Positions 28,908 through 46,892 of a stretch of DNA of 64,000 bases are shown in pieces. Below the pieces are notes generated by a model. The model was not told where the DNA came from. It did no database searches and worked only from the letters and a program-made list of their open reading frames with translations. The DNA comes from Deltaproteobacteria bacterium. GTDB lineage: Bacteria > Desulfobacterota > Binatia > HRBIN30 > CADEER01. The translations under genes and the position numbers were made by a program. Within the stretch, counting starts at the first letter, position 1. Each line of letters opens with the position of its first letter. The stretch is taken from NCBI GenBank assembly GCA_029262455.1, contig JAJCZJ010000020.1, forward strand, positions 325,078 through 389,077, in the 5' to 3' direction.

Positions 28908-29405
28908 GTTTTCGGCGCCGGATTGAAGTGCGAAAACACATAGCGGCCGGAGAGGCAGATGTCAGCGACCGAGGACATCGGGGGTAGTGGGTCACTTTGA
29001 TCCTGAGCTCGGCGCAACCGGAGCGAAGTTGGGAGGGCACGGCACCGCCGAGCCTTTCCGGGGTGGAGTCTTGTCACAGCTACCACCCGCAGGAGCTATG
29101 CGCGGCTCGGCGGCGCCGCGCCCTCCCGGGACCCGGCTGCTCCCGTCCGCTTCGATCAAACCGACCCACCACCGGACATCGAACGCGGTACGCGTATTCT
29201 CCCTCGAAGGCCCGTTCCAAGGCGGCCTCATTCACACCCCGGTCGTAACGCAGCAAGGAGCCGTCTGCATACGCGCGCTGCGCTGTTTCCGGGTCTATGG
29301 AAATGCCACTCCGTTCCGCATTCATTTCCGTCATTTGCAGTTTCCGACACAAACCAATCCGCCCTCTTGCGGAGCCACCCAGGTCGCGCCAGGATCGCAT
29401 CCCTT

Positions 29406-30590
29406 ATGCCGAAAGAAGAGATCGAGGTCGAGGTTCGGGTTCGGCTGCGCGGAGGGCATTCCTACGATCTCACCCTATCATCCAACTCCGCTCTTCTGCG
29501 CGACTTGATCACGACGCTCGGCGGGTCGAGAAACTCGGTCCAGCCCCGACTCTTCCAGCTACCCCTCGACGGCGGCCAAACCTCCGCAACATTCGCCAGC
29601 GATCAGATATCAGCGATCGACACCCGTCCGCCACTCGACTGGAACACCATCACAACTGGTACGGAAGAGCGGTCCGCAAAAAGCCTCGGCGATGGTCCGC
29701 CTCTCGTCCTACGCGGCGCCCGCAACATTACACGCCAGCCATCCTACGAGGCAGCAGAGCGACGAGCGCGGCGGCTGATGGAACCGTTCGTGGCGCATCG
29801 ACAAGCCCGCCGTGCCGCACTGAAGAGCACTTGCGACGAGCTCGGCGGAAACACCTTCGTCGTCTCCCCCTTCAACCAAGGCTTCGTCCCGCTACTGCGC
29901 AACTGGGCCGCATCCTGTGATCGTTCCGGCATCGACTGCCGCGCCAGGACGGTACTGTTTCCGACCGACAACGGCGCCGACACTGCAGCACGCGAGCTCG
30001 GATTCGCAACCCTCTTCGACGGCGTCTCGTTTGACGGTGCCCCGCGCGACGCTATCAAAGTCTACGGGGACGCCCACTTTGCCGATTGTGTCTTCGCCAA
30101 GCTCGGCGCAGCAATCGACATGCTCGCTCTCGGCTACGACATCCTACTCCAGGATATGGATCTCGTCTGGTTCAAAGACCCGCTCCCCGGACTCAAAACT
30201 CGAGCGATGGCCGACGATCTGGACTTACAGTTCATGCGCGACATGAATCCGCGCTTCCAGCCGCTGTACTACAACTCCGGCTTCGTATTTATGCGCAACA
30301 ACGAATTCACCCGCCAAACCTGGAACACCATCTTCGACGCCTTTGCGGCGGTCGTGTTCTACCGCTCCGATCAAACCGTCGTGAACCAGGTCGTCGACTG
30401 CTACAAAGAGCGAGGATTGCGAGCCGCCCGTCTTCCAGATCGCTACGTAGATGGACAACTGCTGATCCGGGCCCAAACAAAACGCCGGCCTCTACCGCCA
30501 GATTCGATCGTGGCTCACGTCAACTGGACCGGAAACCTTGCCGAGAAGATCGCTCGGCTCAAAGCACTCGAACTGTGGTTCATCGACTGA
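29406..30590 (+). CDS. Unassigned N-terminal ~75-aa domain fused to a GT77/PF03407-like nucleotide-diphospho-sugar transferase
   Basis: ORF 29367..30590, ATG 29406. ILLQDMDLVWFKDPLPGL (DxD) and PLYYNSGFVFMRN are typical of Nucleotid_trans/GT77. N-terminus is described in the findings. Confidence 0.65.
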   Translation: MPKEEIEVEVRVRLRGGHSYDLTLSSNSALLRDLITTLGGSRNSVQPRLFQLPLDGGQTSATFASDQISAIDTRPPLDWNTITTGTEERSAKSLGDGPPLVLRGARNITRQPSYEAAERRARRLMEPFVAHRQARRAALKSTCDELGGNTFVVSPFNQGFVPLLRNWAASCDRSGIDCRARTVLFPTDNGADTAARELGFATLFDGVSFDGAPRDAIKVYGDAHFADCVFAKLGAAIDMLALGYDILLQDMDLVWFKDPLPGLKTRAMADDLDLQFMRDMNPRFQPLYYNSGFVFMRNNEFTRQTWNTIFDAFAAVVFYRSDQTVVNQVVDCYKERGLRAARLPDRYVDGQLLIRAQTKRRPLPPDSIVAHVNWTGNLAEKIARLKALELWFID

Positions 30591-30673
30591 TCGATGCAAA
30601 TCACTTGCCGTGTCACAAGTTTTCCCCTTTTAAGCTTGACAGGAAGTCAGCGAACGTCGAGACTGCCTCCCGG

Positions 30674-31942
30674 ATGCCGACATTTGTTGGCGACACCTTA
30701 CCGGAGGCGCTTCGAGCCTTGGACTGCTCAAAATCCATCGAAACTCGTGTCCTGCCGCGCGCAGTGGCCTTCGGTCGCTTGCTTCTCGCTATCGCGGCGG
30801 CACTTGCCGTGGTGACAGCTCCGCATAGGGCGCCGGCAGCCCAGATCAAGTTCACGGGATTTGCCCAAATCAACGGCGCCCCGAGCGGACCGTTCGCAGC
30901 ATTCACAATGAATGAGGTCGTCGATATGACGATCACGATCGACGAGACTACGGCCGATTCGAATGGCGCCGGCGGCGCCGGATCATACAGCGATCCGACC
31001 TCGACCGCATTGTTCGAGGGACAGACCTCCGTGCAGATGGTCACTTTCACCGGCTTCGGCTTCGAACTCCTCGATTCGACGCGACTCGACCCGGCCAACG
31101 GCCTCGTCTCATCGAGCCCGAGCGCGGCGTACGTCGAGGACTGGGACCTGACCAACCTGTCGCCGATTTCGAACGTCGACGACCTTCCGACCATCATTGC
31201 CGAGTTGCCCAATGTGAACATTGGAACCGTCAGCGCCAACTTTTCGATACAACAACTGCCCGCCGGCCCGACCACGCTCTTCCTCGGGCTCAAGCCAACC
31301 GTCACGGTCACCGACTTTTGCGGCAACGGCATCGTCGAGGCCCCGGAAGCGTGTGACGATCCGGTGTGTTGCAACCCGACCTGCACCGCAATCATAGCGA
31401 ACGGAACTGAATGCCGCGCTTCAGCCGGCGTCTGTGATGTGGCCGAGACCTGCAGCAACGGCGCATGCCCCGTCGACGGCTTCGCCTCGATCGGCACCGT
31501 GTGCAACCCGTCATTGGGCGTCTGTGATCCAGAGGAAGTGTGCAGCGGCTCGAGCGCGGAATGCCCGCCGGACACGCTGACTCAGTTCACCTGTGGCACG
31601 ATCTGCGGCGCCCCGGTAGACGAGTGCGACGTTGCCGACATCTGCGTCTCCGGCAACGTCGATTGCCCACCGATGGGGACAATGTGCACACCGACACCGG
31701 TTCCGACTCCGACGCCCACGCCCGTTCCCGAAAATGGGTCCGGGGACGGGGCTTGCAGCGACGGTCTCGACAACGACAACGACAACCTCATCGACTGCGA
31801 CGACCCTGATTGCCTCGACGTCGAGGCATGCGAAACCGTGCACGCACCGACGCTCTCGCCAGGTGGATTGACGATCACCGTGCTCATCCTCGCCCTCATC
31901 GGCTTGTTGGCGATGGGGCGGGCAGTGCTCCGGAAGAACTGA
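30674..31942 (+). CDS. Secreted Cys-rich protein with disintegrin-like motifs, a PT linker, a DxDxD motif and an IPTL-CTERM-like tail
   Basis: Inner part of ORF 30086..31942. Start is ATG 30674 or GTG 30764 (MAFGRLLLAIAAALAVVTA signal). CGNGIVEAPEACDD, three copies of C-x5-CD-x2-E-x-C-x(4,5)-CP-x-D, TPTPVPTPTPTPVP, DGLDNDNDNLIDCDDPDC, APTLSPGGLTITVLILALIGLLAMGRAVLRKN. Confidence 0.7.
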   Translation: MPTFVGDTLPEALRALDCSKSIETRVLPRAVAFGRLLLAIAAALAVVTAPHRAPAAQIKFTGFAQINGAPSGPFAAFTMNEVVDMTITIDETTADSNGAGGAGSYSDPTSTALFEGQTSVQMVTFTGFGFELLDSTRLDPANGLVSSSPSAAYVEDWDLTNLSPISNVDDLPTIIAELPNVNIGTVSANFSIQQLPAGPTTLFLGLKPTVTVTDFCGNGIVEAPEACDDPVCCNPTCTAIIANGTECRASAGVCDVAETCSNGACPVDGFASIGTVCNPSLGVCDPEEVCSGSSAECPPDTLTQFTCGTICGAPVDECDVADICVSGNVDCPPMGTMCTPTPVPTPTPTPVPENGSGDGACSDGLDNDNDNLIDCDDPDCLDVEACETVHAPTLSPGGLTITVLILALIGLLAMGRAVLRKN

Positions 31943-31962
31943 CGGCCGAGGTGCCTGATCAA

Positions 31963-32469
31963 ATGAGCGACTCCAAAAAGACAAGAAAGCAGCTAATCGA
32001 AGAACTCGAACAACTTCGTGGTCAAGTCGCGCAGCGACAGCAGTCGCAGTCGGACAACAGTGCACCGGCGCTTGCCGGCGACGTTTCACGACGCACCGCG
32101 CTAAAGGTCGCCTGGACCGCGCCGGTCATTTTGGCAATCCCTCTCCAGGCCGATCGCTCTGGCGCCCAACCTCCGGTCGGAACGGTGGCCCCGGGCTGTC
32201 CCACCATGACCCCGACCAACGCGGCCCCTCCGACTAGCTCGCCGACCTTGTTCCCAACGACCGCTGAGCCGACGATTTCGCCGACTCAACCAGTCCCGAC
32301 CACCAGGTTGCCAACGTCCAGTCCCACGAACGACCCGACATTGCGTCCGACCACCAGCCCGACGATCCCTGCCCCGACGGCTATGCCGACGGCGAGGCCG
32401 ACCACCAGCCCGACGATCCCTGCTCCGACGCTTTCCCCGACCCCTGGTTTCCCGACGCTTTCCCCGTAA
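31963..32469 (+). CDS. Pro/Thr-rich small protein with a conserved N-terminal helix and an SRRTALK Tat-like motif; candidate substrate/precursor 1
   Basis: Inner part of ORF 31810..32469, ATG 31963 lies 20 nt after the upstream stop. MSDSKKTRKQLIEELEQLRGQV...DVSRRTALKVAWTAPVILAIPL, then about 90 aa with about 26 Pro, mostly as P-T. Paralog of 45413..45892. Confidence 0.7.
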   Translation: MSDSKKTRKQLIEELEQLRGQVAQRQQSQSDNSAPALAGDVSRRTALKVAWTAPVILAIPLQADRSGAQPPVGTVAPGCPTMTPTNAAPPTSSPTLFPTTAEPTISPTQPVPTTRLPTSSPTNDPTLRPTTSPTIPAPTAMPTARPTTSPTIPAPTLSPTPGFPTLSP

Positions 32470-32473
32470 TCAT

Positions 32474-32520
32474 CGGCGGTCAGCCCGCAATTCGGTTGAG
32501 AAACCGCCGTCGCTTTCTTC
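32474..32520 (+). terminator. Weak stem-loop directly after the candidate precursor gene (possible attenuator)
   Basis: CGGCGGT (32474-32480) pairs with ACCGCCG (32503-32509) across a 22-nt loop, followed by TCGCTTTCTTC. Not a canonical intrinsic terminator. Confidence 0.2.
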
Positions 32521-32611
32521 AGAGGACTTTCATCGTCCCCGCCCAATCGTGTCGAACACCATACCGGGCCTCATCCGCGTCAGCGCAAGCACCGTTCCGA
32601 AAAGCTAGCAA

Positions 32612-33976
32612 ATGTCGTCAGGAAACAGCGTAGAAACGCCGCCTACCAACTCTGGAGACTCCCCACGAGCACGGGGTGCGGCGGCTCGGCGGGTACGTCC
32701 GCGGCAGCGGGGCGGGCTCGAGACTTTCGAAGTACACAACGAAATCGTCGTGCTTCCCGGCGAGGGGGACCGCGTTTACGCGCTGAACGAGTCCGGTAAG
32801 GAGATCTTCGGCCTCTGCGACGGTCGCCACACCCTAGAGGCAATGGTCGACCAACTGGCGTCGAGGTACGACGCGCCTGACGTCGCGATCATGGGCGACG
32901 TGTCCGCAGCGATATTCGACCTCCACGGCCTCGGGCTGGTCGATATTCCTCCACCGGCTGACGCAGCTGCATCGATCGAGCCGCAGACCTCGGTCAAGGC
33001 ACGACCCAACGTGCGTTTCGTCTTCGGCATAGAGGACGTGCCCTATTTCCACTGGCAGCTTGCCATCCTCTTCGAGTCGCTCGTCGGCCAATTGCCCGAC
33101 GGTTGGGACGTCACCGTCGTCGTTTGCAACGACGAAGCACCGATTTCCGACGAGCTCATGAAGATCGTTTCCGAGTACGGTGTTCGCATCATGACCGGCA
33201 CCAGTCTCGCCGATCGCCACAGTCTCGACTTCGCCGGCGGCGGTGATCGCTACGTTCCGATGAACCGAGTCGAAGCACTCAGCGTCATTCGGCAAATCGT
33301 CGAACCCGAAGACGTCGTTTGCCTTCTGGACACCGACGTCTTCCTGTACGGCAACCTTCAAGAACAACTCTTCCCGACCGGCAACGCAATGGCCCGCAAC
33401 TGGATCATCTCCGAAGATCGGTACTTCGCGTTCTCGACCAACAACGAACGAGGACTGTCGCTCCCGAAGCTGCTCGAAGCCCTGGGGTGCGAGCAGGAGT
33501 TCAAACCCGGTGGCGTAGCGGTCTTCTTGACGGGAGAGACGATCCAACGCGAGCGCGTCATCCCCGACATTTTCCGTTTCCTTCAGGTTCTGTTCCTGCT
33601 CGGGAAAATCGTCGACGCACCAGCGCACGGCGTTTGGGTCGCCGAAATGGCATGCTTCGCAATGGCCATGTACCCCAACGAAATCGACTACGAGCTTCTC
33701 GACATCCCGCAATTCGCCGTCCAGGAGCAGCATGCTGAAGTCGCCCCCGACGGTTCGTTCTTCCACTACTACACCGACATCAACGACGGCGGGGGATCAA
33801 ATGGTCCGTTTTTCGAATCGCAGTGGCATAAACAGTTATTTCACCAGTCCAACATGCTCCTCGAAGACTTCGACAGCTTCAGAGTGAACGCCAAAGGCCG
33901 CCTCGAGCAGCGCTTCTTCGAAATCGCCGACAAGGCGAGAAAGCGCCTTTACGGCATCGAACGCACGGGCAAGTAG
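32612..33976 (+). CDS. PqqD-like domain fused to a GT95/GT96-like (HPAT / peptidyl-Ser galactosyltransferase-like) glycosyltransferase
   Basis: PqqD-like VYALNESGKEIFGLCDGRHTLEAMVDQLASRYD...AIFDLHGLGLV. GT part: FVFGIEDVPYFHWQLAILFESL, VVCLLDTDVFLYG, VWVAEMACFAMAMY. Confidence 0.6.
   Translation: MSSGNSVETPPTNSGDSPRARGAAARRVRPRQRGGLETFEVHNEIVVLPGEGDRVYALNESGKEIFGLCDGRHTLEAMVDQLASRYDAPDVAIMGDVSAAIFDLHGLGLVDIPPPADAAASIEPQTSVKARPNVRFVFGIEDVPYFHWQLAILFESLVGQLPDGWDVTVVVCNDEAPISDELMKIVSEYGVRIMTGTSLADRHSLDFAGGGDRYVPMNRVEALSVIRQIVEPEDVVCLLDTDVFLYGNLQEQLFPTGNAMARNWIISEDRYFAFSTNNERGLSLPKLLEALGCEQEFKPGGVAVFLTGETIQRERVIPDIFRFLQVLFLLGKIVDAPAHGVWVAEMACFAMAMYPNEIDYELLDIPQFAVQEQHAEVAPDGSFFHYYTDINDGGGSNGPFFESQWHKQLFHQSNMLLEDFDSFRVNAKGRLEQRFFEIADKARKRLYGIERTGK
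32717..32947 (+). other. PqqD-like (RRE-type) domain, copy 1, N-terminal
   Basis: aa 36-112 of ORF 32612; pattern L.LN..g..IW.LCDG..T..EI...L matches PF05402 by eye. Confidence 0.6.
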
Positions 33977-33980
33977 AGCC

Positions 33981-34598
33981 GTGTTGTCAATGTTCGATAC
34001 GCCCGCACACCTCGAGCAGCAGACGCGCGAGCAACAGGCCGCAGCCCGGTACTGCGGGCTCGGCTTCAAAAAGGCCACGCTGCCCTCCGAGGTCTTGCAA
34101 CGGTTGCGCCAACACCTGGAAACGAACAGCCGCCGATTCCGCGCCGAGGAGCCCATCGACTACCTCGTCAACCCGGACCCCGGGAAGATTCCGGCCCTTT
34201 ATTTCGAGGACAAAGAATTCAACGCCACCCTAAGTCGCGAGCTACAAGGATTGCACGAAGAGTGGGCCGGAAGGAGTCTGACCGAGTCCGCCTGCTACGG
34301 CATCCGCGTCTATCAACGCGGCAGCTTTCTCTACAACCACGTCGACCACACCGACACACACATCATCAGCTCTTCGATCTGCGTCGACCACCGCCTCGAC
34401 AAGCCGTGGCCCCTCTACGTCGAGGATATCGACGGCAATCCCCACCAGATCGATCTCGACCCTGGCGACATACTGTTCTACGAGGGAGCCCGCCTGCGAC
34501 ACGGCCGTGCCTATCCACTCGAGGGTGACTACTACGCATCCATTTTCGTCCACTATCGACCCGCAAATCTCTGGTCTTCGCGGCTCGTTGGCACCTAG
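33981..34598 (+). CDS. 2OG-Fe(II) oxygenase, prolyl 4-hydroxylase-like
   Basis: YGIRVYQRGSFLYNHVDHTD (HxD) and distal GDILFYEGARLRHGRAYPLEGDYYASIFVHYRP. Lies 4 nt after the upstream stop. Confidence 0.7.
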   Translation: MLSMFDTPAHLEQQTREQQAAARYCGLGFKKATLPSEVLQRLRQHLETNSRRFRAEEPIDYLVNPDPGKIPALYFEDKEFNATLSRELQGLHEEWAGRSLTESACYGIRVYQRGSFLYNHVDHTDTHIISSSICVDHRLDKPWPLYVEDIDGNPHQIDLDPGDILFYEGARLRHGRAYPLEGDYYASIFVHYRPANLWSSRLVGT

Positions 34599-34640
34599 TC
34601 GCCGATTTCGTTAAGAACACCCGAAAACGCAGTATTACTC

Positions 34641-36644
34641 GTGAGACATCTACTCTATACAAACTACCAGTCCGGTCAGTCGGGTTTGAGCAACGGCATC
34701 ATGTCGATCGAGCTGGGCGTGGTCCTCGCGTTCCTGACGAATCGGTTTCTCCTGCTCGATGGCAACATCTCCCCGCCGGCCAATATCGTGTCGTACGGCG
34801 ATCGAGTCGACAACAGCCAGCCGAGCCGCGTCACCGACCTGATCGACCTACCGGTCGCCTGGAGTGAGCCAGGAAGCGTCGACGTGTCCAAGTTGCCGTT
34901 CCTCGAATTGAGCGACGACCATCTGGGGAGTGCCGCGTTCTATGTCCCCGGCACCGTCGACATCCGATCCGCCGACGCGGAAGCGTTCGCCAACGGCAGG
35001 ACAGTGTGGCTCAACGCTGGCGGCTCGCTCGACGAGATCCCGGTGCTGCGAGTGTCCGAGGATCACAGCAAAGACAATCTTCGATACAATCTCAACTACT
35101 ACTCGTACTTCTTCTACCTCGACGACGAAACGCGTCGCTCCGTCTACCGCATGCTCGAGCGGATGCAACCAAAGCAGGACCTAGGGGAGCTGGCGAAGCG
35201 CGTCGCCGGCGATCTCGGAGCATTCAACGCGGTGCACTTGCGACGCGGTGACTTCAAGGTGACCTATGGAGTCACCACCCTCGACCGTCAACCTTGGGAA
35301 GCAATCGAGGCGCTCGAGCATCACTTCAAACGCGACGACACTCTGGTCTTCGTGACCGACGAGCGCGACGACCCGTTCTTCGACGAGATCAAGAAGGTCT
35401 ATACGCATCACGTATTCATCGATCACCACATCCTCGACGACTACGAGAAGGACTTCGCCGCATTGCAGCACCGCGACAGCATCGCCTTGGCCTATCTTTC
35501 CCAGCTCGTGGCGGCCGAATCCGCCGACTTCATTGGCACCATGACCAGCACGTTCACCGCCATCATCCAGCGCTACCGCGGCAATCGCGGCAAGGCCGAG
35601 AGTTTCAAGTACCTTTGGAACGAGCTCCCGGACGACGGCGATCGTCTCGAACGCGGCCGTCATCCGGTTAGTGAGTGCGTCCCGATGGACCGCGGCATGA
35701 TGGTCGAAGAGTCGTCGGGTCCGTACTCATGGAATCGCTACAACAAGAGGATCGCCGCCAACTGGATGCGCGAATGGCCCGAAAGTTTTCTGACCCAAGA
35801 GAGCCTCGAAACCGGCAAATTGACGACCGGGGCCAGCCCCGTTGCCCGCCCCATCGTTCTGGTTCGTCCCGAAAGGACGAAAGTCGAGGTCGCGTTCGAC
35901 GGCTTGAGCATCATTCTAAACTCGCAAGTGCCTCGCGTTGCGACCAAGCTGAGCGAAGCCTTCGAATCACGCCAAGCTGCGAGTCCAGCGAACGTCATCG
36001 GGGAGTTCGAGGTTGCTGAAGAAGACGGCGACTTCCGTCTTCTGCAACGCGGCCAGGAAATCGCCACCGCAGCAAGCTACGAGGAGTTGGCGCGCACGTT
36101 AAAACTCCGCATGGTGCCGATCTTTGTCGGTGCGCGCCGCCGGCACGTGTGGCTGGAAGCTTTTTCCTTCCGTAGAGCAGGCCATGCGCTGGTTCTCGCC
36201 GGCGACATGGGTCCTCCATCGGACTGGCTGCCGGACGCCATGTGCTCGAACGGCTGGGAGCTGCTGTGGGACGAGATCGTCCCGATCCGCCTGGAAGACT
36301 GTACCGTCACACCGTTCGGCCGCACGACCTGGCCGAAGGGCGCAGCCCTGCGCATCGACCGTACGCCCTGTCGCGTCAGCGGCCTGATCGTCACCAGCCG
36401 ACAAGTCCAGCGCCGCGACACCTTGACCGTCTTGTCCCCAGCCACCGGGGTGGCGGAGTTGATCGGCCGCTGCGTCGACTTCCGCACCGACCGCAAGCGG
36501 GCGGTAGAACGCCTGTGCAAGCTGGTCGAGAAACGAACCGTAGGCAGACTGTCCTTCAGCCGCGCCGAGACCGCTGTCGATCTCCTCACGCGCCCCTTCC
36601 TCGACGCGGAGCGTGAGTCCGCCCACGGTACAAAGTCTGCATGA
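34641..36644 (+). CDS. O-fucosyltransferase-like (PF10250-type) GT domain fused to an HprK-related-kinase-like domain with a degenerate P-loop
   Basis: GLSNGIMSIELGVVLAFLTNRFLLL, FNAVHLRRGDF, ADFIGTMTSTFTAIIQRYRG. C-terminal half: VEVAFDGLSIILNS...HVWLEAFSFRRAGHALVLAGDMGPPSDWLPDAMCSNGWELLWDEIVPI. Confidence 0.55.
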   Translation: MRHLLYTNYQSGQSGLSNGIMSIELGVVLAFLTNRFLLLDGNISPPANIVSYGDRVDNSQPSRVTDLIDLPVAWSEPGSVDVSKLPFLELSDDHLGSAAFYVPGTVDIRSADAEAFANGRTVWLNAGGSLDEIPVLRVSEDHSKDNLRYNLNYYSYFFYLDDETRRSVYRMLERMQPKQDLGELAKRVAGDLGAFNAVHLRRGDFKVTYGVTTLDRQPWEAIEALEHHFKRDDTLVFVTDERDDPFFDEIKKVYTHHVFIDHHILDDYEKDFAALQHRDSIALAYLSQLVAAESADFIGTMTSTFTAIIQRYRGNRGKAESFKYLWNELPDDGDRLERGRHPVSECVPMDRGMMVEESSGPYSWNRYNKRIAANWMREWPESFLTQESLETGKLTTGASPVARPIVLVRPERTKVEVAFDGLSIILNSQVPRVATKLSEAFESRQAASPANVIGEFEVAEEDGDFRLLQRGQEIATAASYEELARTLKLRMVPIFVGARRRHVWLEAFSFRRAGHALVLAGDMGPPSDWLPDAMCSNGWELLWDEIVPIRLEDCTVTPFGRTTWPKGAALRIDRTPCRVSGLIVTSRQVQRRDTLTVLSPATGVAELIGRCVDFRTDRKRAVERLCKLVEKRTVGRLSFSRAETAVDLLTRPFLDAERESAHGTKSA

Positions 36645-37630
36645 CAGACCAAGCAACCGCACCGCGCCAGATCGACATCCGCATCTCCACCATCGGCGGG
36701 CACGAGTATCGGTTGAATCTCCGCGAAGACGCCGTCCATTTGCGCGACCTCTTTACTCGATTCGTCAACCGACCGGCGACTGGGGCTGTCCGAGCTCCTG
36801 AATTCATCCAACTGCCCCTCGACGGAGGCAACGCTTCCTGCACGATCGCCGTCGATCAGATTGTGTCGATCGTCACCACGCCACCAGTCGTCATCGAAGT
36901 GCAACAACCCGCCGTCGAGCCAAACGTAATTCCAGATGTGCCGGCAGTGGTCGCGCCACCCCAGATCCGGCGCGCACACTACACGGTGATCGACGACTTT
37001 CTCACCGTCGATGAGCACCGAGACATGCTGGCGTTGGCATTGAGCGAGAAGGACAGCTTCGAACCCGGTACGGTGCAGGGTGAACCGAGTCCACACCGAC
37101 GAAACAGCGTCATCATGAACTTCGCAGACTCGGCGCACGGAACACTGCTGACAAGTCGTCTGCTCGTTTGGTTTCCATTGATCGCAAAGGCGCTGAAGGA
37201 ACCACTGTTTCCGCTCAAGACGGTCGAGTCGCAACTGACCGCCGCCAACGACGGAGACTACTATAAGCCTCACCTCGATACCGACGGGAAGACCCCCGAT
37301 TTCCGGGTCATCGCGTGCGTCTACTATTTCTTCCGCGAGCCAAAAGGGTTCACGGGCGGCGACCTACGCCTCTATGATTCCATCGAAACAGGTGGCGAAA
37401 TCTGTCAGGCGGATTCCTTCCAAGACATTCGGCCGGCAAGCAATCGCTTGGTCGCATTCACCTGCGAGACCTTCCACGAGCTGCTCGCGACTCGCTGCCC
37501 GTCCAAGGATATCGAAGACAGTCGTTTTGCGGTGACCGCGTGGTTTCACCGCAGCGGCGCACCGGACCCCGACGCCAAGTTCGGTTGGGGACATTATCGT
37601 TGCGGCGAAGTTCCGGAGGCACTGCGGTGA
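36641..37630 (+). CDS. Unassigned N-terminal ~80-aa domain fused to a 2OG-Fe(II) oxygenase (PF13640-like)
   Basis: ATGA overlap with the upstream stop. YYKPHLDTDG (HxD), GGDLRLYD, NRLVAFTCETFHEL, RFAVTAWFH. Confidence 0.7.
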   Translation: MTDQATAPRQIDIRISTIGGHEYRLNLREDAVHLRDLFTRFVNRPATGAVRAPEFIQLPLDGGNASCTIAVDQIVSIVTTPPVVIEVQQPAVEPNVIPDVPAVVAPPQIRRAHYTVIDDFLTVDEHRDMLALALSEKDSFEPGTVQGEPSPHRRNSVIMNFADSAHGTLLTSRLLVWFPLIAKALKEPLFPLKTVESQLTAANDGDYYKPHLDTDGKTPDFRVIACVYYFFREPKGFTGGDLRLYDSIETGGEICQADSFQDIRPASNRLVAFTCETFHELLATRCPSKDIEDSRFAVTAWFHRSGAPDPDAKFGWGHYRCGEVPEALR

Positions 37631-37802
37631 GCAACGCGAGGGCTCGCTGCTCGAGACCACCGATCCTCGCGCTTTCGACCAAAGGTAGCGAAGGCGCGCC
37701 CCCCGCCGCACCGGGTACTGTCATCAGCAGCCGGCGAGTCAGCCACCTCGCTTTCGCAGGCTTGACCGAAGCCCCCGGGATCAGAGGCAGAGTGCGTTTG
37801 TC

Positions 37803-38930
37803 ATGATCTTCACGGTTTTCGTCGCACCGGTCGAACCAACGCAACAGTGGCGTGCCGATCTCCTCGAATACTCATGGCGACGCATCAAGCAGAGCGGCGA
37901 ACTGATCCGGCTGGCGCCAACCGCCCCCGGACGCGCACCAGGTAGCAGAGGGAGAGTCGGGAGAACCGTCAAAACGTTCGACTGGAACCCCCACCCGTAC
38001 ACCCAGGACGTGTACGCCGGCTATCAGACAACCGCCGGCGTACTCGAGTGGTTGTTCAACGAGCCGGCCGAAGGAACAGTCCTTTTGCTGGATTCGAGCT
38101 GCATCCTACGCCACCCGGTTACAGCAGAGGTCGAACCAGGCCACGTGCGCGGGTCGTCGTGGCCGGAGATCCCACTTGGCACGGACGGCCCATTCGGCCT
38201 GCATGATGATCTGAAGTTTCTCGAATCCTATTGCGTCAACCGCAAGCTCCCCCTCGCTCCCGTGCGGATGCCGATTTTGATCCACACGGCGGACCTGCGA
38301 AAAATCGCGGCGCGCTGGCTCGAGCTTACGGCGTTGATTCGATCCCATGCCGTAGGCGTTCACGGAAAATACCTTCATGCAGATCGCGTCGCCTACACCG
38401 TCGCCGCCGCCGAATACCGCATCCTCCACACCCTTGACGACCTCGGCACTACGACGTCGGATACCGGCAAAGACGTTCCGATCGTCGACTACAGCACACC
38501 GATCAAGTCCAAACAGGGAGAGATCGTCTGGGACCGAAAGGTCTATCGACCATGGGAGGCAGTCTACACCGAAAATGCGCGCGCAGGCGCAGGCAGAGAC
38601 GTACTCGGGATCCTGAACGAGATGGTGACGCGCCGCGAATCGGGAGCCGAGCTTGCGGCAACACGTCCACAGCGGTGCTACGGGGTGCGGGAAGCACGAA
38701 TTCTCGACGACATTCATCTCGAAGTACCTGGGTGTGCCGACTTGATGTCGCTGAATCAATCCGCGGCTGCCATCTGGGAGCTGTGCAACGGCGAGAACAC
38801 ACTCGCCGAGATCGTCAGCGAGCTCGAGAGACAATTCGACGCGTCACGCGAAACCCTCATGACATCCGTCGAATCGACGGCGAGGGATTTGGAAAGCTCA
38901 GGTGCCATCGAGCTGGAGGAGCTGTTCTGA
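37803..38930 (+). CDS. GT95/GT96-like glycosyltransferase fused to a C-terminal PqqD-like domain
   Basis: IFTVFVAPVEPTQQWRADLLEYSWRRIKQSGELIRL, AGVLEWLFNEPAEGTVLLLDSSCILRHPV, ILIHTADLRKIAARWLELT, ADRVAYTVAAAEYRILH. C-terminus: LMSLNQSAAAIWELCNGENTLAEIVSELERQFD. Confidence 0.6.
   Translation: MIFTVFVAPVEPTQQWRADLLEYSWRRIKQSGELIRLAPTAPGRAPGSRGRVGRTVKTFDWNPHPYTQDVYAGYQTTAGVLEWLFNEPAEGTVLLLDSSCILRHPVTAEVEPGHVRGSSWPEIPLGTDGPFGLHDDLKFLESYCVNRKLPLAPVRMPILIHTADLRKIAARWLELTALIRSHAVGVHGKYLHADRVAYTVAAAEYRILHTLDDLGTTTSDTGKDVPIVDYSTPIKSKQGEIVWDRKVYRPWEAVYTENARAGAGRDVLGILNEMVTRRESGAELAATRPQRCYGVREARILDDIHLEVPGCADLMSLNQSAAAIWELCNGENTLAEIVSELERQFDASRETLMTSVESTARDLESSGAIELEELF
38679..38927 (+). other. PqqD-like domain, copy 2, C-terminal
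   Basis: Last ~82 aa of ORF 37803..38930. Confidence 0.6.
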
Positions 38931-40156
38931 TGGCATCCAAAGCAAAACCAAGCGCCAAAAAGTCCGTGCCGACCACAAAAACAAAGCACGCAGCAAAACG
39001 TGCCAAAGCCTCGGCCAAGAAAACAGCCAAAGCGCCGCCCGGAAAAGCCACGACAGCACGGGCGAAGAAGACCACCAAGACTCCGGCCTCCAAGAGCCCC
39101 AAAACCCGGACCCAAAGGACCCGGGCCCAAAAGCCCCGGGCCCGCAAAGCCGCGCTCAAAGTATCGCAAACGGTGTCGCCCAAAGGATCGCAAACGACTT
39201 CGAAGACGGAGCGAACGACCCCATCGCCTCGCGCAAAGTCGCGGCAGGCCACAAAACAACCCCAGATCTTCGTGTCGATCGCCTCCTACCGCGACCAGTT
39301 TCTTCACTTCACCATCGAGTCGGTGCTCAAACAGGCGACGTACCCAGAACGGTTGACCTTCGGCCTCTGCTGGCAAGCCGACGACACCGAGCAACTCGAT
39401 CAATACCTGCACGATCCGCGTTTCCGCATTCGCAAGTACCCGTACTACGCGAGCCTCGGCTACGGTTGGGCAAGAGCCGAGATCCAAAAACTATACGCCG
39501 GCGAAGAGTACCATCTACTGATCGATTCTCACACGTATCTCGCCAAGGGGTGGGACGAGAATCTGATCGCGCAACTCGAGAGCAAGCCGGGCGAGAAGCC
39601 GCTACTGACGACCAGCTCACCCCCTTTCACCTTCGACAATGACGGCAACGTCGTAATCCCGTGGCAAGGGACCGAACACGACGGCGTGCCGCTGATGAAG
39701 TGCGCACGAATCCAACCGGCAGGGTGGGTCGACATCCAGATGTCCAATGAGCGCAAGTCCACCAAACATCAAACCACCGGATTGGTGTGCTGTAACTTTG
39801 TCTTCACGCACGGGGCTTGGATCCGCGAAGTGCCCGAGGATCCGGCGATGATCAACGCCGGCCACGAGTCAGCCCTTTCGGTTCGTACCTTCACCCACGG
39901 ATACGACATCTACCTGCCCGACGAAATTCAAATCTGGCACCTCGACTACAACAACTACCCGAACGGTGAGCGCAACAAGGTATGGGAAGCAAAGTCCGAC
40001 AGTTGGCAGTCTGAGGGCACCGAGATCATGCTGCGGCGGCTGCAAGCGCTGTTCTACAACCGCGGCGACCGCGCCTCGCTCGGCCGCTACGGACTCGGTC
40101 GATCCCGCACCGTAGCCGACTGGGCGGAGATCACCGGACTCGACCTCAGTGACTGA
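38930..40156 (+). CDS. Lys/Ala/Thr/Pro-rich basic N-terminal extension (~111 aa) fused to a GT60 Gnt1-like (PF11397) glycosyltransferase
   Basis: Inner part of ORF 38552..40156. ATGA overlap with the upstream stop, GGAGGAG SD at 38915-38921. MASKAKPSAKKSVPTTKTKHAAKRAKASAKK..., then QIFVSIASYRDQFL, LLIDSHTY. Confidence 0.65.
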   Translation: MASKAKPSAKKSVPTTKTKHAAKRAKASAKKTAKAPPGKATTARAKKTTKTPASKSPKTRTQRTRAQKPRARKAALKVSQTVSPKGSQTTSKTERTTPSPRAKSRQATKQPQIFVSIASYRDQFLHFTIESVLKQATYPERLTFGLCWQADDTEQLDQYLHDPRFRIRKYPYYASLGYGWARAEIQKLYAGEEYHLLIDSHTYLAKGWDENLIAQLESKPGEKPLLTTSSPPFTFDNDGNVVIPWQGTEHDGVPLMKCARIQPAGWVDIQMSNERKSTKHQTTGLVCCNFVFTHGAWIREVPEDPAMINAGHESALSVRTFTHGYDIYLPDEIQIWHLDYNNYPNGERNKVWEAKSDSWQSEGTEIMLRRLQALFYNRGDRASLGRYGLGRSRTVADWAEITGLDLSD

Positions 40157-41942
40157 CGTCGACTCCGCACTACTGCCAATTCCCCAACCCGAGTGGCGTG
40201 CTTCTTTATCCGGCGACGGCGCGGCAGTTGATGTCCTGATTTTAAGCAAGGACCGCGCCTGCCAACTCGACGGACTGCTGCGCACGATGCGCGCGTTCCT
40301 GACCATCCCACACCGGAAATACGTACTGTACAAGACGTCTAATTTGGCGTTCGAGCGCGGCTACGACATGCTCCGCCGGTGGAATCCCGAGGTCGAGTTC
40401 ATCGACGAGGCGCAAACGTTTCGACAATGCTACCTCGACCTCGTGGCAAGGATCGCCGCCGGGCCTGGTCGCTACTGGATGCCGGTGATGGACGACATGA
40501 TCTTCACTCGCACGTTCACCGCACAGCCACTCATCGACCTCCTCGACACAGACGAGGACGTGCTGGCGATCTCTCTGCGCCTCGGCGAGAACATTACCTA
40601 TTGCTACACCCGAAACGCTCCAACCACACCTCCGGACTTCAGCAACGGACACCGTTGGGAATGGAGAACAGCCAGCCCAGGCTACTGGAACTATCCAATG
40701 TCCGTCGACGCCAACATCTACCGCACGGCGGAAATGGCCGAATACATCCCGACCCTCCAATTCGGCAAGGCTGAAGTCATCGAGGCACGCATGGCCGGGG
40801 TGCCCTTGAACCGCCCCCATATGCTGTGTGAACCGACCCCCAGCGTACTCAATCTCGCGATCAACCGCGTTCAACACACCTTCAAGAATCGGCACGGCAC
40901 AATCACGCCAGAAGCCCTGAACGGCGCTTTCCTCGCGGGTTTCGCGATGGATGTGCGCCCGTTGCTGGGTCGAACCTTCAACGCCTGTCACGTCGAGGTC
41001 GAGCTGTCCTTGGTCCCCGATGCGCGCGAGCGCCCCGGCGCAACGCCCCTCTCTTCGACCGGCTGGAAACCACAGCGAAACGGCGCCGTCGTCGTGACCG
41101 AGAGCCATGCTGTCGTGACGCTCAAGAGGAACGGAACGAAGCTCAAACTCAATCAGAGCGCCGAAGAGATCTGGAAACTGTGCGACGGAACACGAACGCC
41201 CGAGGACATCCAAAACGAGCTCGCGCAACATTTTGACGCAACCCCGCGCCAGCTTCACAGCGGCGTACGAAGCGCCCTGGCGAATTTCATCAATCACGGC
41301 CTTCTCCGTCAGGAACGCCCGGAAGGCGCATACCGCCGCATCGACCTGCGCCAGATTCCCTGCTTCGTGATCAATTGCGAAGCCGATGCTGAGAAGGACA
41401 CGTTGATGAAGCGTCAGCTCGCTGAGCTCGGGATACCGTACGAACGTGTACCCGGGATCGCCGCAAGCCCGGATTGGGTCGGCGTCGCGCTGTCGCACCT
41501 CAAAGTGCTTCGCCTGACCCGCTCGACGACACCCTTCCTGGTGCTCGAGGACGATTGCTTGTTCAACGACCGCTTCCAACCAGTGTGGCAAGTACCGGTC
41601 GAGGCCGACGCCCTGTATCTCGGCGTTTCCGAGTTCGGCCTCGAGACCCCCGGTCACTTCAGCTGGGGCCGCCGGCGCAAGAACCAATGGAGACCCTACG
41701 ACCGGTCCTTCCTCCGCATTTTCAACATGCTCGCACGCCATGCGGTCGTGTACCTTTCCAACGACTACTGCGAGCAAGTCATCCAATCGCAAATCGAAGC
41801 ACTGACGAATCGAAGTTTGCCGTACCCTGGGGACATCGGCTGCGCGATGCTGCAAGCATCGCACGTCGTCCTGACCCCGAACGAACCGATCTGCCGGCAA
41901 ACCGGTCGTGACTCGACCGTGCGTCCGTTGCCGGAGCTCTGA
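40149..41942 (+). CDS. Three-domain protein: GT-A-like domain, central PqqD-like domain, GT25-like domain
   Basis: VDVLILSKDRACQLDGLLRTM; central KLKLNQSAEEIWKLCDGTRTPEDIQNELAQHFD; C-terminal IPCFVINCEADAEKDTLMKRQLAELGIPYERVPGI...FLVLEDDC. Confidence 0.6.
   Translation: MTDVDSALLPIPQPEWRASLSGDGAAVDVLILSKDRACQLDGLLRTMRAFLTIPHRKYVLYKTSNLAFERGYDMLRRWNPEVEFIDEAQTFRQCYLDLVARIAAGPGRYWMPVMDDMIFTRTFTAQPLIDLLDTDEDVLAISLRLGENITYCYTRNAPTTPPDFSNGHRWEWRTASPGYWNYPMSVDANIYRTAEMAEYIPTLQFGKAEVIEARMAGVPLNRPHMLCEPTPSVLNLAINRVQHTFKNRHGTITPEALNGAFLAGFAMDVRPLLGRTFNACHVEVELSLVPDARERPGATPLSSTGWKPQRNGAVVVTESHAVVTLKRNGTKLKLNQSAEEIWKLCDGTRTPEDIQNELAQHFDATPRQLHSGVRSALANFINHGLLRQERPEGAYRRIDLRQIPCFVINCEADAEKDTLMKRQLAELGIPYERVPGIAASPDWVGVALSHLKVLRLTRSTTPFLVLEDDCLFNDRFQPVWQVPVEADALYLGVSEFGLETPGHFSWGRRRKNQWRPYDRSFLRIFNMLARHAVVYLSNDYCEQVIQSQIEALTNRSLPYPGDIGCAMLQASHVVLTPNEPICRQTGRDSTVRPLPEL
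41079..41315 (+). other. PqqD-like domain, copy 3, internal
   Basis: aa 311-389 of ORF 40149..41942. Confidence 0.6.
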
Positions 41943-41977
41943 TCGAACGAGCCGTTCCTCCAAGCCGGATCCATACA

Positions 41978-44900
41978 GTGAAAAAGGGCACAATCCACGA
42001 TCTCTTCTCCCGCACCGCTTGCGTCGTGTCCGACAGGCACCGATTCATCTATTTGACGGCGCAAAACGCCACGTCTTCCCTGAAGGCCGAGCTGTCGAAC
42101 GAGCACTGCGGCGGCGTTGTCCTCGCCCGCGCACAGGTGGCTGATAAACTCTGGAACCAATACTTTACGTTCGCCTTCCTGCGCGACCCGCTGACGCGCT
42201 TTCTCTCCGCCTATCAGGAAGTGTCTCTGCACATGGAGCGTGACAAACTCGAACCGCGCCCTTTCGGCCGGATGCCCGACGGCCTCGATCGCTTTCAGGC
42301 ATTTCTCGCGGACGTCGAGCAGAACGGTCCGTGGAACGAGCACATTGCACTCCAGCTAGCCTTCGTCGAGCGCCGAAGAATCGACTTTTGGGGGCTCGTC
42401 GAAACGCTGCAAGACGACTTCCAACAAATCTACACCCGGCTGGGATTGGGGACCTGTCCCGTTCTGCCAAAACGCCGCTCTCGCAGCGGCCGTGAGGAAA
42501 AGGACGGCATCTCGCGCTTCGCCTTCCATCCGGAGGACCTCGATGCGACGACAATTGAGCGCATCTACGACCTCTACCGTGAGGACGTCTTGCTGATTCG
42601 AGCGGTTCGCCCCGACGCACCTGAAATGCAGCCGCACTCAACCCGTGCCGCACCGCCCCCCGGAATGGTGCAGGTGGCGATCGCCCTGGCCAACGGCGGC
42701 GAATACTCCCTCGAACTTCCGCCCGGCCAACCAGAGCTGGGCGCTCTGCAAGCTGTGGTATCACCACAACAATCCGATGGACGTTTTCTCGGCCCGCAAG
42801 TTCTGCAGGTTCCACTGCGTGGTGGCAATTCCGCGCTGACGTTTTCCACGCAGCACCTCGTTCGTCTCGAGCTACGCCCCCCCGACGCCCGAGAACTGCG
42901 CCGAATCGAGGCGCCGGCCACCGGCACGGGCAACTCCGGAGTGAATCTAATAAACGTCGGGAACAAGCGGCCGCCAACCGAGGACCCATCGAGCAATATC
43001 GACGAGGCGCATCTCGGTGGCTACATTCGTGCGGCCAATACACCGATTCTCCACAGCGCCGCAGGCCCACACGGGGACCGGGGAACCTGGAATCCGCTGC
43101 TGTGGCGTTGGGCAATCGAAGATCTCGACGTGCGATCAGTGATCGATATCGGATGCGGCGAGGGACACGCCGCCGGATTTTTCTCCGACGGCGGGTGTGA
43201 AGTGCTCGCGCTCGATGGCAGCCTTCAAGCGCGCTATTCCAGCGTTGTTCCAGATCGCCACGTCGTACACGACTTCGTCGAGGGACCTTTCGTCCCAGAG
43301 AAAAGCTTCGACATGGCCTGGACCTGCGAGTTCGTCGAACACGTCGAGGCGCGTTTTCTCCACAATTTCCTGGCTACGATCGCATCGAGCCGCAAGTACG
43401 TGATGATGACGTTCGCCAGCCCGACACAAACAGGCTGGCATCACGTCAATTGCCAAGAACAGGGTTACTGGGTCGATCAGTTGGGACGCCTCGGGTTTCG
43501 CCTGGACGACGATCTAACCGAGAGAGGCCGAGCCTTGGCTCACTCTCATTTTCGCGAACGTGGCCTGGTCTTCGTCCGGCACCATCGAAAAGGCGAGTCA
43601 TCGAAGTCCACAGAACCGTCGCTGCGCGCGACTGCCGAGAGTCACTGTCTCGACCCGCTGCCGGTCCAATCCATGCAGGTCGCACAGCGCGAGAGCGATG
43701 CCTTCTACCTGTTTGTCGACATCTTCGTGCATCCGACCGCACCGAGAATCGTGGCGATCTCACCACCCTATGGCGAAGACTGGAATCCTAACGTTGTCGG
43801 CATCGACTACGATGCCGTCGACCTTGTATTCGGTGACATACGCGTCCGCGGCCGCTGCCTGCGGCACCGTCTCGACTCCTGGGAGCCTTGCATGCTTCTC
43901 GAGTTCGAGGACGAAGACCTAACAGAGCGCATTCGGGCCAACGACGAGATCAACGTCACGATCGAGGCCGGCTCGCATTCGTCGTCCTTCGTCCTGACGA
44001 CCCGCCCAGCGCCAGCCTACGATGTCGCAATGAGCCTCGTCGTACGCAACGAAAACCGCTGGATCCGCACGTTTCTCGACTACTACCTCGACTGCGTCAA
44101 AGCCGACCACGTCTTCATCTACGACAACGGAACGTCGGAACAAGACCAGCTGCTTTCCATTCTTCACCCGTACCGAGAGCGCGGGCAAGTGACGTACATC
44201 CCGTGGGATTTTCGCTGGCGCAACCGCATCGACCGCAAGATGATCGGCCAACCGACACAGGAGGCTCACTCCCTTGCAAGATTCGCAAACACCGGGTGGA
44301 TCGGCTTTCTCGACATCGACGAGTTCCTGCGCTTGCCGCACAGCACCCTGCCACAATTTCTCGCTCGCTTCGCGTCCGCGGAGGTCGACGGACTCTCGTT
44401 CGGTATCCGGTGGTTTTCTTACGAGGGCCCGCTTGCACTCGATGAGATTACGAGTGTGCCACTGCAATTCCTCCACTCGCGCCGCAATGAGCTCGGCCGA
44501 AAACGGCAGAAGTTCTTCGTCAAAGGCGGCGGCTCGAAGTTTCTTCGCTTGCATTGGCTCGAAGACGGAGGTCGCGAACTGCCCATCGACGACACCGAGA
44601 TCTACTTTCACCACTACGATCAACGTCCCGGCCGTTTCGAAGAAGGAAAGCAAATCGGAGGAGCGCGCGACGAATACATGCTGCGCTTCGCCGACCAGCT
44701 CTCGCGCCCCGAGCGGCACAGAGCCCCTCTAACCGAGAGAGGATGGATCACCCACATCAACTCTTCGATCGAACGCGCCGAACGCGACACCTCCAAACTC
44801 ACCCCGGAAGTCCTCGCCGTCGACGGCATGTGCGGGCGCTACACCCGTCACTTCTACAACAACCTCTGCAGCTTCGGAGGATGCCGCTACCTCGAGATCG

Positions 44901-45385: not shown

Positions 45386-45412
45386 AAACGCCGCAAATAT
45401 CGAAACCGGGAA

Positions 45413-45892
45413 TTACTCCTCGCCCTTGGTTTCTTTTCCCACGGGAGCCGGTCGGCCCTCGTCGTCATCCGAAGCAATGAGCTTTTTAGCACCGAAGCCA
45501 AAGAGCGCCGCTGCGGCCACAGCCGCGGCGCCGCCTGAAACCACAGGCGCATCGACTGCTGCCTGAAAGGCGGTCGGAACCGCCGTACTGGGAAGGCCCG
45601 GATCGAGGACCGTCGGGACCTGCGTCGGTGCGGCAGTAGGATTGAGGCAAAGTGACGGCGAATTGGTACATTGCGTCGTCCCAGCTTCGACAGGCGCGAC
45701 GAATCCAAGATCAGACGAGACCGGTACCGATAAGATCACCGGCGTTACCCAGGCAATCTTGAGCGCCGAGCGCCTTGAAATATCGTCGGAAAAAGTCGGC
45801 CGCGCCGCCTTCCCGTCCGTCACCAGCTCGCCCCGCAGCCGCTCGATCTCCTCGAGAAGCTCCTTTTTCGTCTTCGTTCCGTCACCCGCCAT
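45413..45892 (-). CDS. Pro/Thr-rich small protein, paralog of 31963..32469, with a C-terminal hydrophobic anchor and acidic tail; candidate substrate/precursor 2
   Basis: ORF 45413..45997 trimmed to ATG 45892, which has a GGAGAGGG SD upstream. MAGDGTKTKKELLEEIERLRGEL...DISRRSALKIAWVTPVILSVPV, P/T/S/A-rich middle, GGAAAVAAAALFGFGAKKLIASDDDEG. Confidence 0.65.
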   Translation of the reverse strand: MAGDGTKTKKELLEEIERLRGELVTDGKAARPTFSDDISRRSALKIAWVTPVILSVPVSSDLGFVAPVEAGTTQCTNSPSLCLNPTAAPTQVPTVLDPGLPSTAVPTAFQAAVDAPVVSGGAAAVAAAALFGFGAKKLIASDDDEGRPAPVGKETKGEE

Positions 45893-46048
45893 TATAGACC
45901 CTCTCCAATGCTGCCGCTGCCATAGCAAGAATCCGACCCAAATCCCAGGCCTGCGACATCGATTTCCTGGATTCGCGGTGAGACACCCCCTGCGCACTCG
46001 TAGCAGCGGCTCGGCAGCCTATCCCGATCAAGTGGGAGAATGGGCGTG

Positions 46049-46744: not shown

Positions 46745-46759
46745 GGGGATTCTATGTGT

Positions 46760-46878: not shown

Positions 46879-46892
46879 GTTGGGCAAAAGTT

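Follow-up and report, generated by a model that had tools for sequence, protein, structure and literature searches.

The PEP-carboxykinase-like fold is common to phosphoenolpyruvate carboxykinase (PEPCK) and to HPr kinase/phosphorylase (HprK/P), the latter being a hexamer built through its catalytic domain. Among eukaryotic protein kinases, pseudokinases are a familiar class. Lasso-peptide precursor kinases, PadeK and ThcoK among them, are HprK homologues that phosphorylate Ser hydroxyls of linear precursor peptides (PMC8498205). Our literature searches returned no description of a catalytically dead P-loop kinase domain of the HprK/PEPCK type, nor of the fusion or the gene cassette reported here, and searches on ScmC and HprK-related kinases, on PqqD with O-fucosyltransferase, and on RiPP (ribosomally produced peptide with post-translational modifications) recognition elements (RREs) with hydroxyproline glycosylation gave nothing relevant. 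In this study, we analyzed a candidate for such a domain in a 64,000-nucleotide stretch of DNA from a Deltaproteobacteria bacterium (GenBank assembly GCA_029262455.1, contig JAJCZJ010000020.1, positions 325,078 to 389,077 of the forward strand), referred to below as the window. The domain forms the C-terminal half (C-domain) of the product of the gene at 34641-36644, where it is fused to an O-fucosyltransferase (O-FucT)-like domain (N-domain). We propose, with a probability of roughly 0.6, that it is a dead descendant of an HprK-related P-loop peptide kinase, retained as a non-catalytic docking module of an RRE-guided modification cassette. The features of the gene that bear on this proposal are the following.

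34641..36644, + strand: HprK-like/O-FucT-like fusion gene, 667 aa, two domains, GTG start
34641..35813, + strand: N-terminal O-fucosyltransferase-like domain, aa 1-391 (PF10250, Foldseek, invariant HxRRGD)
35829..35876, + strand: flexible interdomain linker, aa 397-412 (low model confidence, variable in alignments)
35877..36626, + strand: predicted pseudokinase domain of PEPCK/HprK fold, aa 413-662 (homology, fold, residue loss)
36156..36158, + strand: E506, where the family has an invariant His (that of HprK/P); the column aligns to the His of 3tqf
36201..36227, + strand: degenerate Walker A loop GDMGPPSDW, aa 521-529, aligned to GxxGxGKST with strand-loop-helix kept
36270..36275, + strand: D544-E545, where the family has its S-D-D motif (the HprK/P catalytic Asp pair), aligned to 'CDD' of 3tqf
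36288..36290, + strand: R550, charge-swapped position, Asp/Glu in active relatives and Arg/Lys in the dead clade
36336..36338, + strand: K566, at the position of the conserved Arg of the P-loop family, followed by a deletion of ~21 columns

A preliminary description of this DNA, made from its sequence alone, had read the C-terminal half as an HprK-related-kinase-like domain, and the segment it quoted is exact. The half went unrecognized in a Pfam scan; in an NCBIfam scan it matched TIGR04352 (HprK-related kinase A) with an E value of 5e-8 and 32.3 bits, aa ~499-570 lying on profile positions 93-164 of 280. The similarity to TIGR04352-type proteins that had been pointed out is therefore real, but the product is not a member, as its 32 bits compare with an equivalog cutoff of 200 bits. 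Since the P-loop relatives of the domain, at 52-90 bits, likewise stay under this cutoff, the whole group is a sister family rather than that equivalog.

These relatives came from HMMER, run exhaustively over 1.84 billion representative proteins (E<=1e-3), which yielded 324 representative relatives of the C-domain. The 20 closest are without any Walker A motif and are mostly fragments of the same fusion, because their sequences open with the tail of an O-FucT domain; the remainder are mainly standalone proteins of 260-290 aa, in which GxxGxGKS(T) falls near residue 110-125. When the C-domain alone was used in a word-indexed search, 2 close fragments came back, suggesting a rare domain, a notion that was dropped when the exhaustive and N-domain searches gave hundreds. 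The motif-less and P-loop groups are colinear over the whole domain, and their profiles align with a probability of 100% and an E value of 2.7e-45 over 251 columns (hhalign). The Walker A columns land exactly on GDMGPPSDW, so the replacement of GSGKST by this loop in the preliminary description stands, although the loop had been placed at 36195-36224, two codons away from its actual position at 36201-36227.

Among 50 aligned members, 48 match TIGR04352, 35 TIGR04355, 13 the Pfam model Hpr_kinase_C, 12 ScmC, and 8 the true HPr(Ser) kinase model. The best PDB sequence match of the P-loop profile is the HprK structure 3tqf, with the His, the Walker A and the Asp-Asp pair aligned. Because PDB sequence searches with the C-domain itself and with the dead-clade profile gave nothing significant, the C-domain is tied to HprK only through fold comparison and the P-loop-family profile. 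The product has no match to TIGR00679/PF07475 (HPr kinase/phosphorylase). In precomputed annotations, several P-loop relatives carry PF27840 (ScmC-like), and a protein identical to ours (P0173) and its orthologues carry PF10250 only. The C-domain thus belongs by homology and fold to the HprK/PEPCK-type superfamily, while falling outside TIGR04352 and TIGR00679/PF07475 and, going by the precomputed annotations, outside PF27840 too.

An HprK-like fold was indeed found. The AlphaFold2 model of the C-domain, built on a 50-sequence alignment, has a mean predicted local distance difference test score (pLDDT) of 90.4 and a predicted template modeling score (pTM) of 0.84, and is predicted to be a two-lobed, PEP-carboxykinase-like structure with a strand-P-loop-helix core. 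Around the degenerate P-loop, DSSP assigns the strand 515-521 and the helix 530-536, both retained. PEPCK outscores HprK in the fold comparison because the N-lobe of the C-domain (aa 413-498) also superposes on it. The full-length model (pLDDT 86.9, pTM 0.67) consists of two well-folded domains and a disordered linker, which has pLDDT < 50 and a variable sequence.

Alignment of the Walker and neighboring residues of 147 P-loop relatives with those of 21 motif-less ones shows that the Walker A, the His and the Arg are lost and that the Asp is kept in our product but not throughout the motif-less clade. The His, conserved at 1.00 in the P-loop relatives, is E506 here and E, R, T, D or N in the motif-less clade. 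The Walker A Gly, Lys and Ser (1.00, 1.00 and 0.99) are P526, S527 and D528 here and variable in that clade, and the conserved Arg (0.94) is K566, its counterparts in the motif-less clade being Lys or Glu. The D544 column is Asp at 0.99-1.00 in the P-loop relatives and in 14 of the 21 motif-less sequences, and it is kept in our product. Structural columns have also been retained, namely F419, W504, G521, G538, W539, P558 and P600.

The same trend is found within the fusions themselves, of which 170 sequences were compared (145 motif-less and 25 kinase-intact). C-domain columns with at least 90% conservation number 13 in the motif-less and 33 in the kinase-intact fusions, versus 176 and 130, respectively, in the N-domain. 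The loop 522-529 has a net charge of -2.15 in the motif-less clade versus +1.64 in the kinase-intact fusions, and position 550 is R or K in 128/145 of the former and D or E in 23/25 of the latter. Together, the loop and position 550 look like a mutual exchange of charge, by which the former nucleotide pocket could be locked. With a kinase fold, the loss of His, Gly-Lys-Ser and Arg in 145 orthologues, and a ratio of nonsynonymous to synonymous substitution (dN/dS) of 0.23-0.4, the domain has the operational marks of a pseudokinase, as had been suspected. Judged by its sequence, the C-domain is a pseudokinase, and one that presumably no longer binds nucleotide.

Some of the retained residues could be read in another way. 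The domain may still be an enzyme or a ligand sensor with a non-canonical site, in which D522, D528, D544/E545 and R499/R550/D613 would form the binding residues for a metal, for a sugar-phosphate or for a peptide segment that is basic or hydroxylated, and would perform or regulate a different reaction. The retention of D544-E545 in our product speaks for such a site, as do a C-domain dN/dS well under 1 and several positions conserved in this clade, unlike in the kinase-intact one (E420, 0.89; R499, 0.95; R550, 0.86; D613, 0.92). However, across the larger motif-less clade D544 is conserved at only 0.47 and position 545 at only 0.34, and the loop, apart from G521, is variable. The small number of strongly conserved C-domain columns, 13 against 33 in the active fusions, is also at odds with it, and, measured against its partner, the dead domain evolves at about double the rate of the active version, which does not have the look of a remodeled active site. 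We therefore regard a non-canonical site as unlikely.

The distribution of the fusion places the residue losses in an evolutionary frame. A search with the N-domain gave 330 matches, the top 120 of which are almost all 640-700 aa long, and the Walker A is missing in 123/128 C-domain alignments and in 145/170 fused sequences. The fusion was found in 67 genome loci (L numbers below denote loci, and P numbers proteins). The hosts belong to Candidatus Binatia, Gammaproteobacteria, Polyangia/Myxococcota, Acidobacteriota, Thermodesulfobacteriota and Alphaproteobacteria, the gammaproteobacterial ones comprising Halieaceae (Luminiphilus syltensis NOR5-1B, Congregibacter), Elongatibacter, Lysobacterales and Nitrotoga. 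The named loci closest to ours, at 68% identity, are from a 'Candidatus Binatia' metagenome-assembled genome and an unclassified one. The dead domain is carried by loci L003-L029, and in Luminiphilus syltensis NOR5-1B it is found in NOR51B_1280. In 22 loci among L031-L064, mostly from Alphaproteobacteria, with others from Vicinamibacterales and Acidobacteriota, the His, GxWGRGKS, SDD and Arg of the fused domain are all intact. Kinase-intact orthologues include those of Oricola sp. (L035) and Tepidamorphus sp. 3E244 (L044). Loci with an unfused transferase often have a separate intact HprK-like gene nearby (L053, L054, L060, L063, L068).

In a neighbor-joining tree of the N-domain, the motif-less fused sequences fall into one clade, with all 29 dead-domain loci and two contigs cut before the C-domain, which is consistent with a single loss. 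The sister set, whose catalytic residues are all retained, is chiefly alphaproteobacterial. The HprK-like domain has also degenerated independently in L051, in L058 and in the PqqD-fused protein P0114. A dead or degenerate fused domain is accompanied by a separate intact HprK-like gene in L023 (17003-18001, - strand), L027 (17102-18100, - strand) and L051 (6897-7931, + strand); these genes carry GDSGAGKST or GASGQGKTT and lie within 7 kb. In our 64-kb window, by contrast with these loci, there is no second HprK-like open reading frame (ORF), and no window ORF of 150 aa or more has a G....GK[ST] motif, so we discarded the idea that an active kinase is supplied in trans from the window.

Despite its losses, the dead C-domain is under purifying selection and is not decaying. 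By the Nei-Gojobori method, applied to pairs with unsaturated dS, dN/dS in the dead clade is about 0.23-0.4 for the C-domain versus 0.07-0.2 for the N-domain, whereas in kinase-intact pairs it is similar in both domains (0.15-0.25). Our gene compared with that of L003 gives 0.32 and 0.15 for the C- and N-domains, respectively, with dS close to saturation. The dead domain nevertheless evolves 2-3 times faster than its fucosyltransferase-like partner. At an N-domain identity of 60-70%, C-domain identity is 0.30 in dead versus 0.47 in kinase-intact fusions, and at 50-60% it is 0.20 versus 0.39.

This relaxed constraint relative to the N-domain, together with the few conserved columns, would fit an evolutionary relic that has no function of its own and is tolerated because its removal destabilizes the fused transferase. 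We consider this highly improbable. The domain is full length, free of truncations and frameshifts, in 145 orthologues from several phyla; its dN/dS is 0.23-0.4 and not about 1; its fold is predicted confidently; and unfused O-FucT homologues (L046, L053, L057, L060, L063) demonstrate that the transferase can exist without it. The one exception to the full-length rule, L001, is a syntenic, long-read ENA contig of 1.64x coverage, in which the fusion appears as two gene calls, one of 421 aa (O-FucT) and one of 197 aa (P0002). The first ~40 residues of P0002 are out of frame, and the two calls very likely reflect a sequencing frameshift, not a truly divided gene.

What the retained domain may do is suggested by its genomic company, which was followed across the 67 loci. 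The neighboring genes of the window that form the core of the cassette are these.

31963..32469, + strand: candidate precursor, a Pro/Thr-rich ORF with a conserved N-terminal helix, a twin-arginine-like segment and xPT repeats
32612..33976, + strand: PqqD (RRE) domain fused to an enzyme domain X (PF05402, E 7.6e-14; syntenic in most of the 67 loci)
33981..34598: 205-aa protein, provisionally oxygenase-like
36641..37630, + strand: 2-oxoglutarate (2OG)-Fe(II) oxygenase (PF13640), whose ATG overlaps the stop codon of 34641-36644 (ATGA)
37803..38930, + strand: weakly hydroxyproline-arabinosyltransferase-like domain with a C-terminal PqqD domain (PF05402, E 1.9e-13; syntenic)

The core cassette (window ~29367-49114; loci L003-L064) is syntenic across at least five phyla, in the order PqqD-X, 205-aa protein, O-FucT/HprK-like fusion, 2OG oxygenase, weakly HPAT-like/PqqD fusion, and PF11397 GlcNAc-transferase. 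The last of these is followed by further PqqD-, sulfotransferase-, methyltransferase- and glycosyltransferase-containing genes. PqqD domains occur in three genes neighboring 34641-36644, namely 32612-33976, 37803-38930 and 40149-41942, each fused to another enzyme, and their best models are the generic, Geo or Scm PqqD ones; the dedicated HPr-rel-A PqqD model did not appear in family scans of the window proteins.

Relatives of the HprK-like domain are themselves joined to such partners. A standalone relative directly follows a PqqD gene in L002, and there are PqqD-HprK-like fusions (P0164, P0114), a PqqD-HprK-like-2OG fusion (P0131) and an HprK-like-2OG fusion (P0066). In the triple fusions P0045 (994 aa) and P0061 (1035 aa), O-FucT, intact HprK-like and 2OG domains form a single protein, while in the window the same genes are separate and overlap by ATGA. 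A further ORF of this set of fusions, 1003 aa long, lies at L038:9986-12994. These fusions argue for physical cooperation of the HprK-like module with RRE domains and with the downstream oxygenase, in support of the link to RRE-dependent chemistry drawn in the preliminary description.

The same associations bear on whether the C-domain might be an oligomerization module only, which would multimerize the transferase without any role in substrate or RRE recognition. Its HprK/P fold, that of a hexameric enzyme, would suit this role, and the C-terminal helices with the pattern 'LSP..AVAELI..DF..DR.RAV.RLC.LVE' are the best conserved part in both dead and active clades. The recurrent fusion or adjacency to PqqD and to the 2OG oxygenase, however, points to hetero-association, and we find a purely oligomeric role improbable.

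Taken as a docking module, the C-domain may have arisen as follows. The ancestral HprK-like domain could have been a precursor kinase, which is plausible because HprK homologues phosphorylate Ser residues of linear lasso-peptide precursors. The Gly-Lys-Ser, the catalytic His and the conserved Arg would then have been lost once, in the ancestor of the large fucosyltransferase-kinase fusion clade. With the acidic loop and the Asp-to-Arg swap at position 550, a D528-R550 salt bridge may fill the old nucleotide pocket. Kept thereafter under purifying selection in a non-catalytic role, the pseudokinase would tether the fucosyltransferase-like enzyme to the RRE (PqqD)-guided machine, to the Pro/Thr-rich precursor, or to both, possibly through a surface for partner or substrate binding that it has kept from the active kinase. 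Each of the large cassette enzymes of the window has one accessory non-catalytic domain, be it PqqD, a ~75-aa domain or the pseudokinase; by analogy with the other enzymes, the pseudokinase may be the recruitment or docking module of the fucosyltransferase-like enzyme.

Several points weigh against this proposal. The full-length model, with its pTM of 0.67 and its disordered linker, leaves the mutual orientation of the two domains undefined. D544-E545 is still present in our product, so that a residual or altered activity is conceivable, and we infer the lack of nucleotide binding in the C-domain from its residues. Only 13 C-domain columns are conserved at 90% or more, and no conserved binding patch stands out among them. 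The neighbor-joining tree, in turn, is without support values.

The N-terminal half of the fusion had been called O-FucT-like, and this label holds at the fold level. PF10250 matches aa 178-313 with an E value of 1.3e-5 and 25.5 bits, under the gathering score of 31.5, and in Foldseek searches with the full-length model the best matches are POFUT2, POFUT1, AtFUT1 and FUT8 (E 1e-7 to 1e-5). H199-x-R201-R202-G203-D204 and about 65 further N-domain positions are invariant in 116 sequences, and the domain is probably active. The GTG start at 34641 is right, since residues 2-20 are conserved in > 100 orthologues, whereas the identical protein in the public databases (P0173, 647 aa) has been called from a site 20 codons downstream and is 20 aa short. 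Public names of the orthologues are 'O-fucosyltransferase family protein' (NCBI) or 'hypothetical protein', with the C-terminal domain unassigned.

In at least 12 loci a homologue of the candidate precursor occupies the corresponding place, immediately upstream of PqqD-X (e.g., L007:7372-7962, L021:7436-8002, L025:7585-7989, L011:5544-6056). The N-terminus of the precursor is a helix, 'MSDSDKTKxELLxELEALRAKL', followed by an acidic linker. The next segment, '(I/L)TRRxxL..AWVAPVILSVP...AQAQ', resembles a twin-arginine translocation (Tat) signal with an AxA site, after which come many xPT repeats. Several proteobacterial and acidobacterial precursors end in a conserved 'IPVE(I/L)SEF(D/E)(I/V)' tail. 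This arrangement suggests modification in the cytoplasm followed by Tat export. The repeats of the dead and intact clades have no clean Ser/Thr difference.

The Skp1 hydroxyproline GlcNAc-transferase belongs to family PF11397, and the plant hydroxyproline arabinosyltransferases make up PF23452. The PF23452 match of the 37803-38930 product (E 0.13; 12 bits versus a gathering score of 23.9) is not a reliable assignment, and together with PF11397 it is a hint of a bacterial hydroxyproline-glycosylation system. The window holds two PF11397 GlcNAc-transferase paralogues, 38552-40156 and 46893-47900 (- strand); the former ORF opens with a Lys/Ala/Thr-rich low-complexity stretch, and its true start may be further downstream. 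The 38552-type paralogue is present at 65% identity or more in 25/27 dead-kinase loci, and intact fused-kinase loci have only 34-39% cross-hits. That this enzyme replaced phosphorylation in the dead clade was considered and rejected, as the paralogue occurs beside a separate intact kinase in L053 and L063; the correlation probably reflects phylogeny.

Three cluster enzymes share the ~75-aa domain, which lies at the N-terminus of the 2OG oxygenase (36641-36880), at the N-terminus of a Nucleotid_trans protein (29420-29640), and between the sulfotransferase and methyltransferase domains of 41978-45385 (~42660-42900). It follows the pattern '..V.V.L..G..Y.L.L.......L..L......[FL].Q[LV]PL.GG.....F....I..I...PP' (pairwise BLASTP E 6e-17 and 3e-9), is without Pfam assignment, and may be another substrate-recruitment module. 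The product of 41978-45385 (+ strand, 1135 aa) is composed of sulfotransferase, ~75-aa shared, methyltransferase, GT92/GT2-like and Methyltransf_24 domains, parts of which recur in related loci. Just upstream of the candidate precursor, the ORF ~30700-31942 (+ strand) encodes a Cys-rich protein with a disintegrin-like match (PF00200, E 1e-7, under the gathering score). This protein also has a 'PTPVPTPTPTP' linker, an acidic segment of DxDxD type and, at its C-terminus, a hydrophobic anchor, and no homologue turned up when the related loci were searched by BLAST.

From these components a more specific, and so far doubtful, proposal can be made. The dead HprK-like domain might be a hitherto unrecognized type of RiPP-recognition or recruitment module that binds the PqqD/RRE-leader complex or the xPT core, and so brings a cytoplasmic O-glycosyltransferase to a precursor of mucin/extensin-like character that bears a Tat signal and for which prolyl hydroxylation and glycosylation on hydroxyproline are also predicted. 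If so, the kinase-intact sister clade would be a natural control, in which the same machine adds phosphate, and a widespread and undescribed bacterial pathway to hydroxyproline/threonine-glycosylated proteins would operate with interchangeable recruitment domains (PqqD, ~75-aa, pseudokinase).

Independently of this, the analysis provides a domain assignment for the unannotated C-terminal 250 residues of several hundred 'O-fucosyltransferase family protein' and 'hypothetical protein' entries. Orthologous intact and dead fusions within the same cassette also offer a natural contrast for what an HprK-like module contributes to RRE-dependent modification other than phosphoryl transfer. The larger novelty may lie in the cassette rather than in the C-domain: an apparent RRE-guided hydroxyproline/threonine glycosylation of a Tat-signal-like xPT-repeat protein. 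It points to a widespread, uncharacterized bacterial glycoprotein pathway, with Luminiphilus syltensis NOR5-1B, Elongatibacter sediminis and Tepidamorphus sp. as cultured hosts.

Among known systems, the closest to the C-domain are HprK-related kinase A (TIGR04352), kinase B (TIGR04355) and ScmC (TIGR04249; PF27840), with which it shares colinear homology over about 250 aa to a two-lobed, ~270-aa P-loop family, as well as a genomic partnership with PqqD-family domains. In contrast to them, it has lost the Walker A, the His and the Arg, has a ~21-column deletion after K566, and occurs not as a standalone protein but fused to a fucosyltransferase-like domain of GT-B type. HprK/P proper (PF07475, TIGR00679) is more distant: there is no significant sequence match, no Walker A or His, and S527-D528 in place of the Lys-Ser, D544-E545 being all that remains. 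The MurE-like N-terminal domain of HprK/P is also missing, the N-lobe resembles PEPCK, and HPr is an implausible substrate in this context. ATP-dependent PEPCK, at about 10-12% identity, has no sequence-level match, and the C-domain is half its size and without PEPCK active-site motifs.

The lasso-peptide kinases PadeK and ThcoK resemble our case in that an HprK-type module is found in a RiPP-like cluster with PqqD/RRE domains, but they are active, standalone enzymes, whereas the C-domain here appears dead and is joined to a glycosyltransferase; among the window genes examined, neither lasso cyclase nor protease genes were present. For the N-domain, the relevant enzymes are POFUT1 and POFUT2 (GT65/GT68), with which it has in common the GT-B fold, a match to PF10250 and the invariant HxRRGD. 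It differs from them in a Pfam score below the gathering threshold and in being bacterial and cytoplasmic. While the acceptors of POFUT1 and POFUT2 are EGF or TSR domains, the acceptor here is probably an unstructured xPT repeat.

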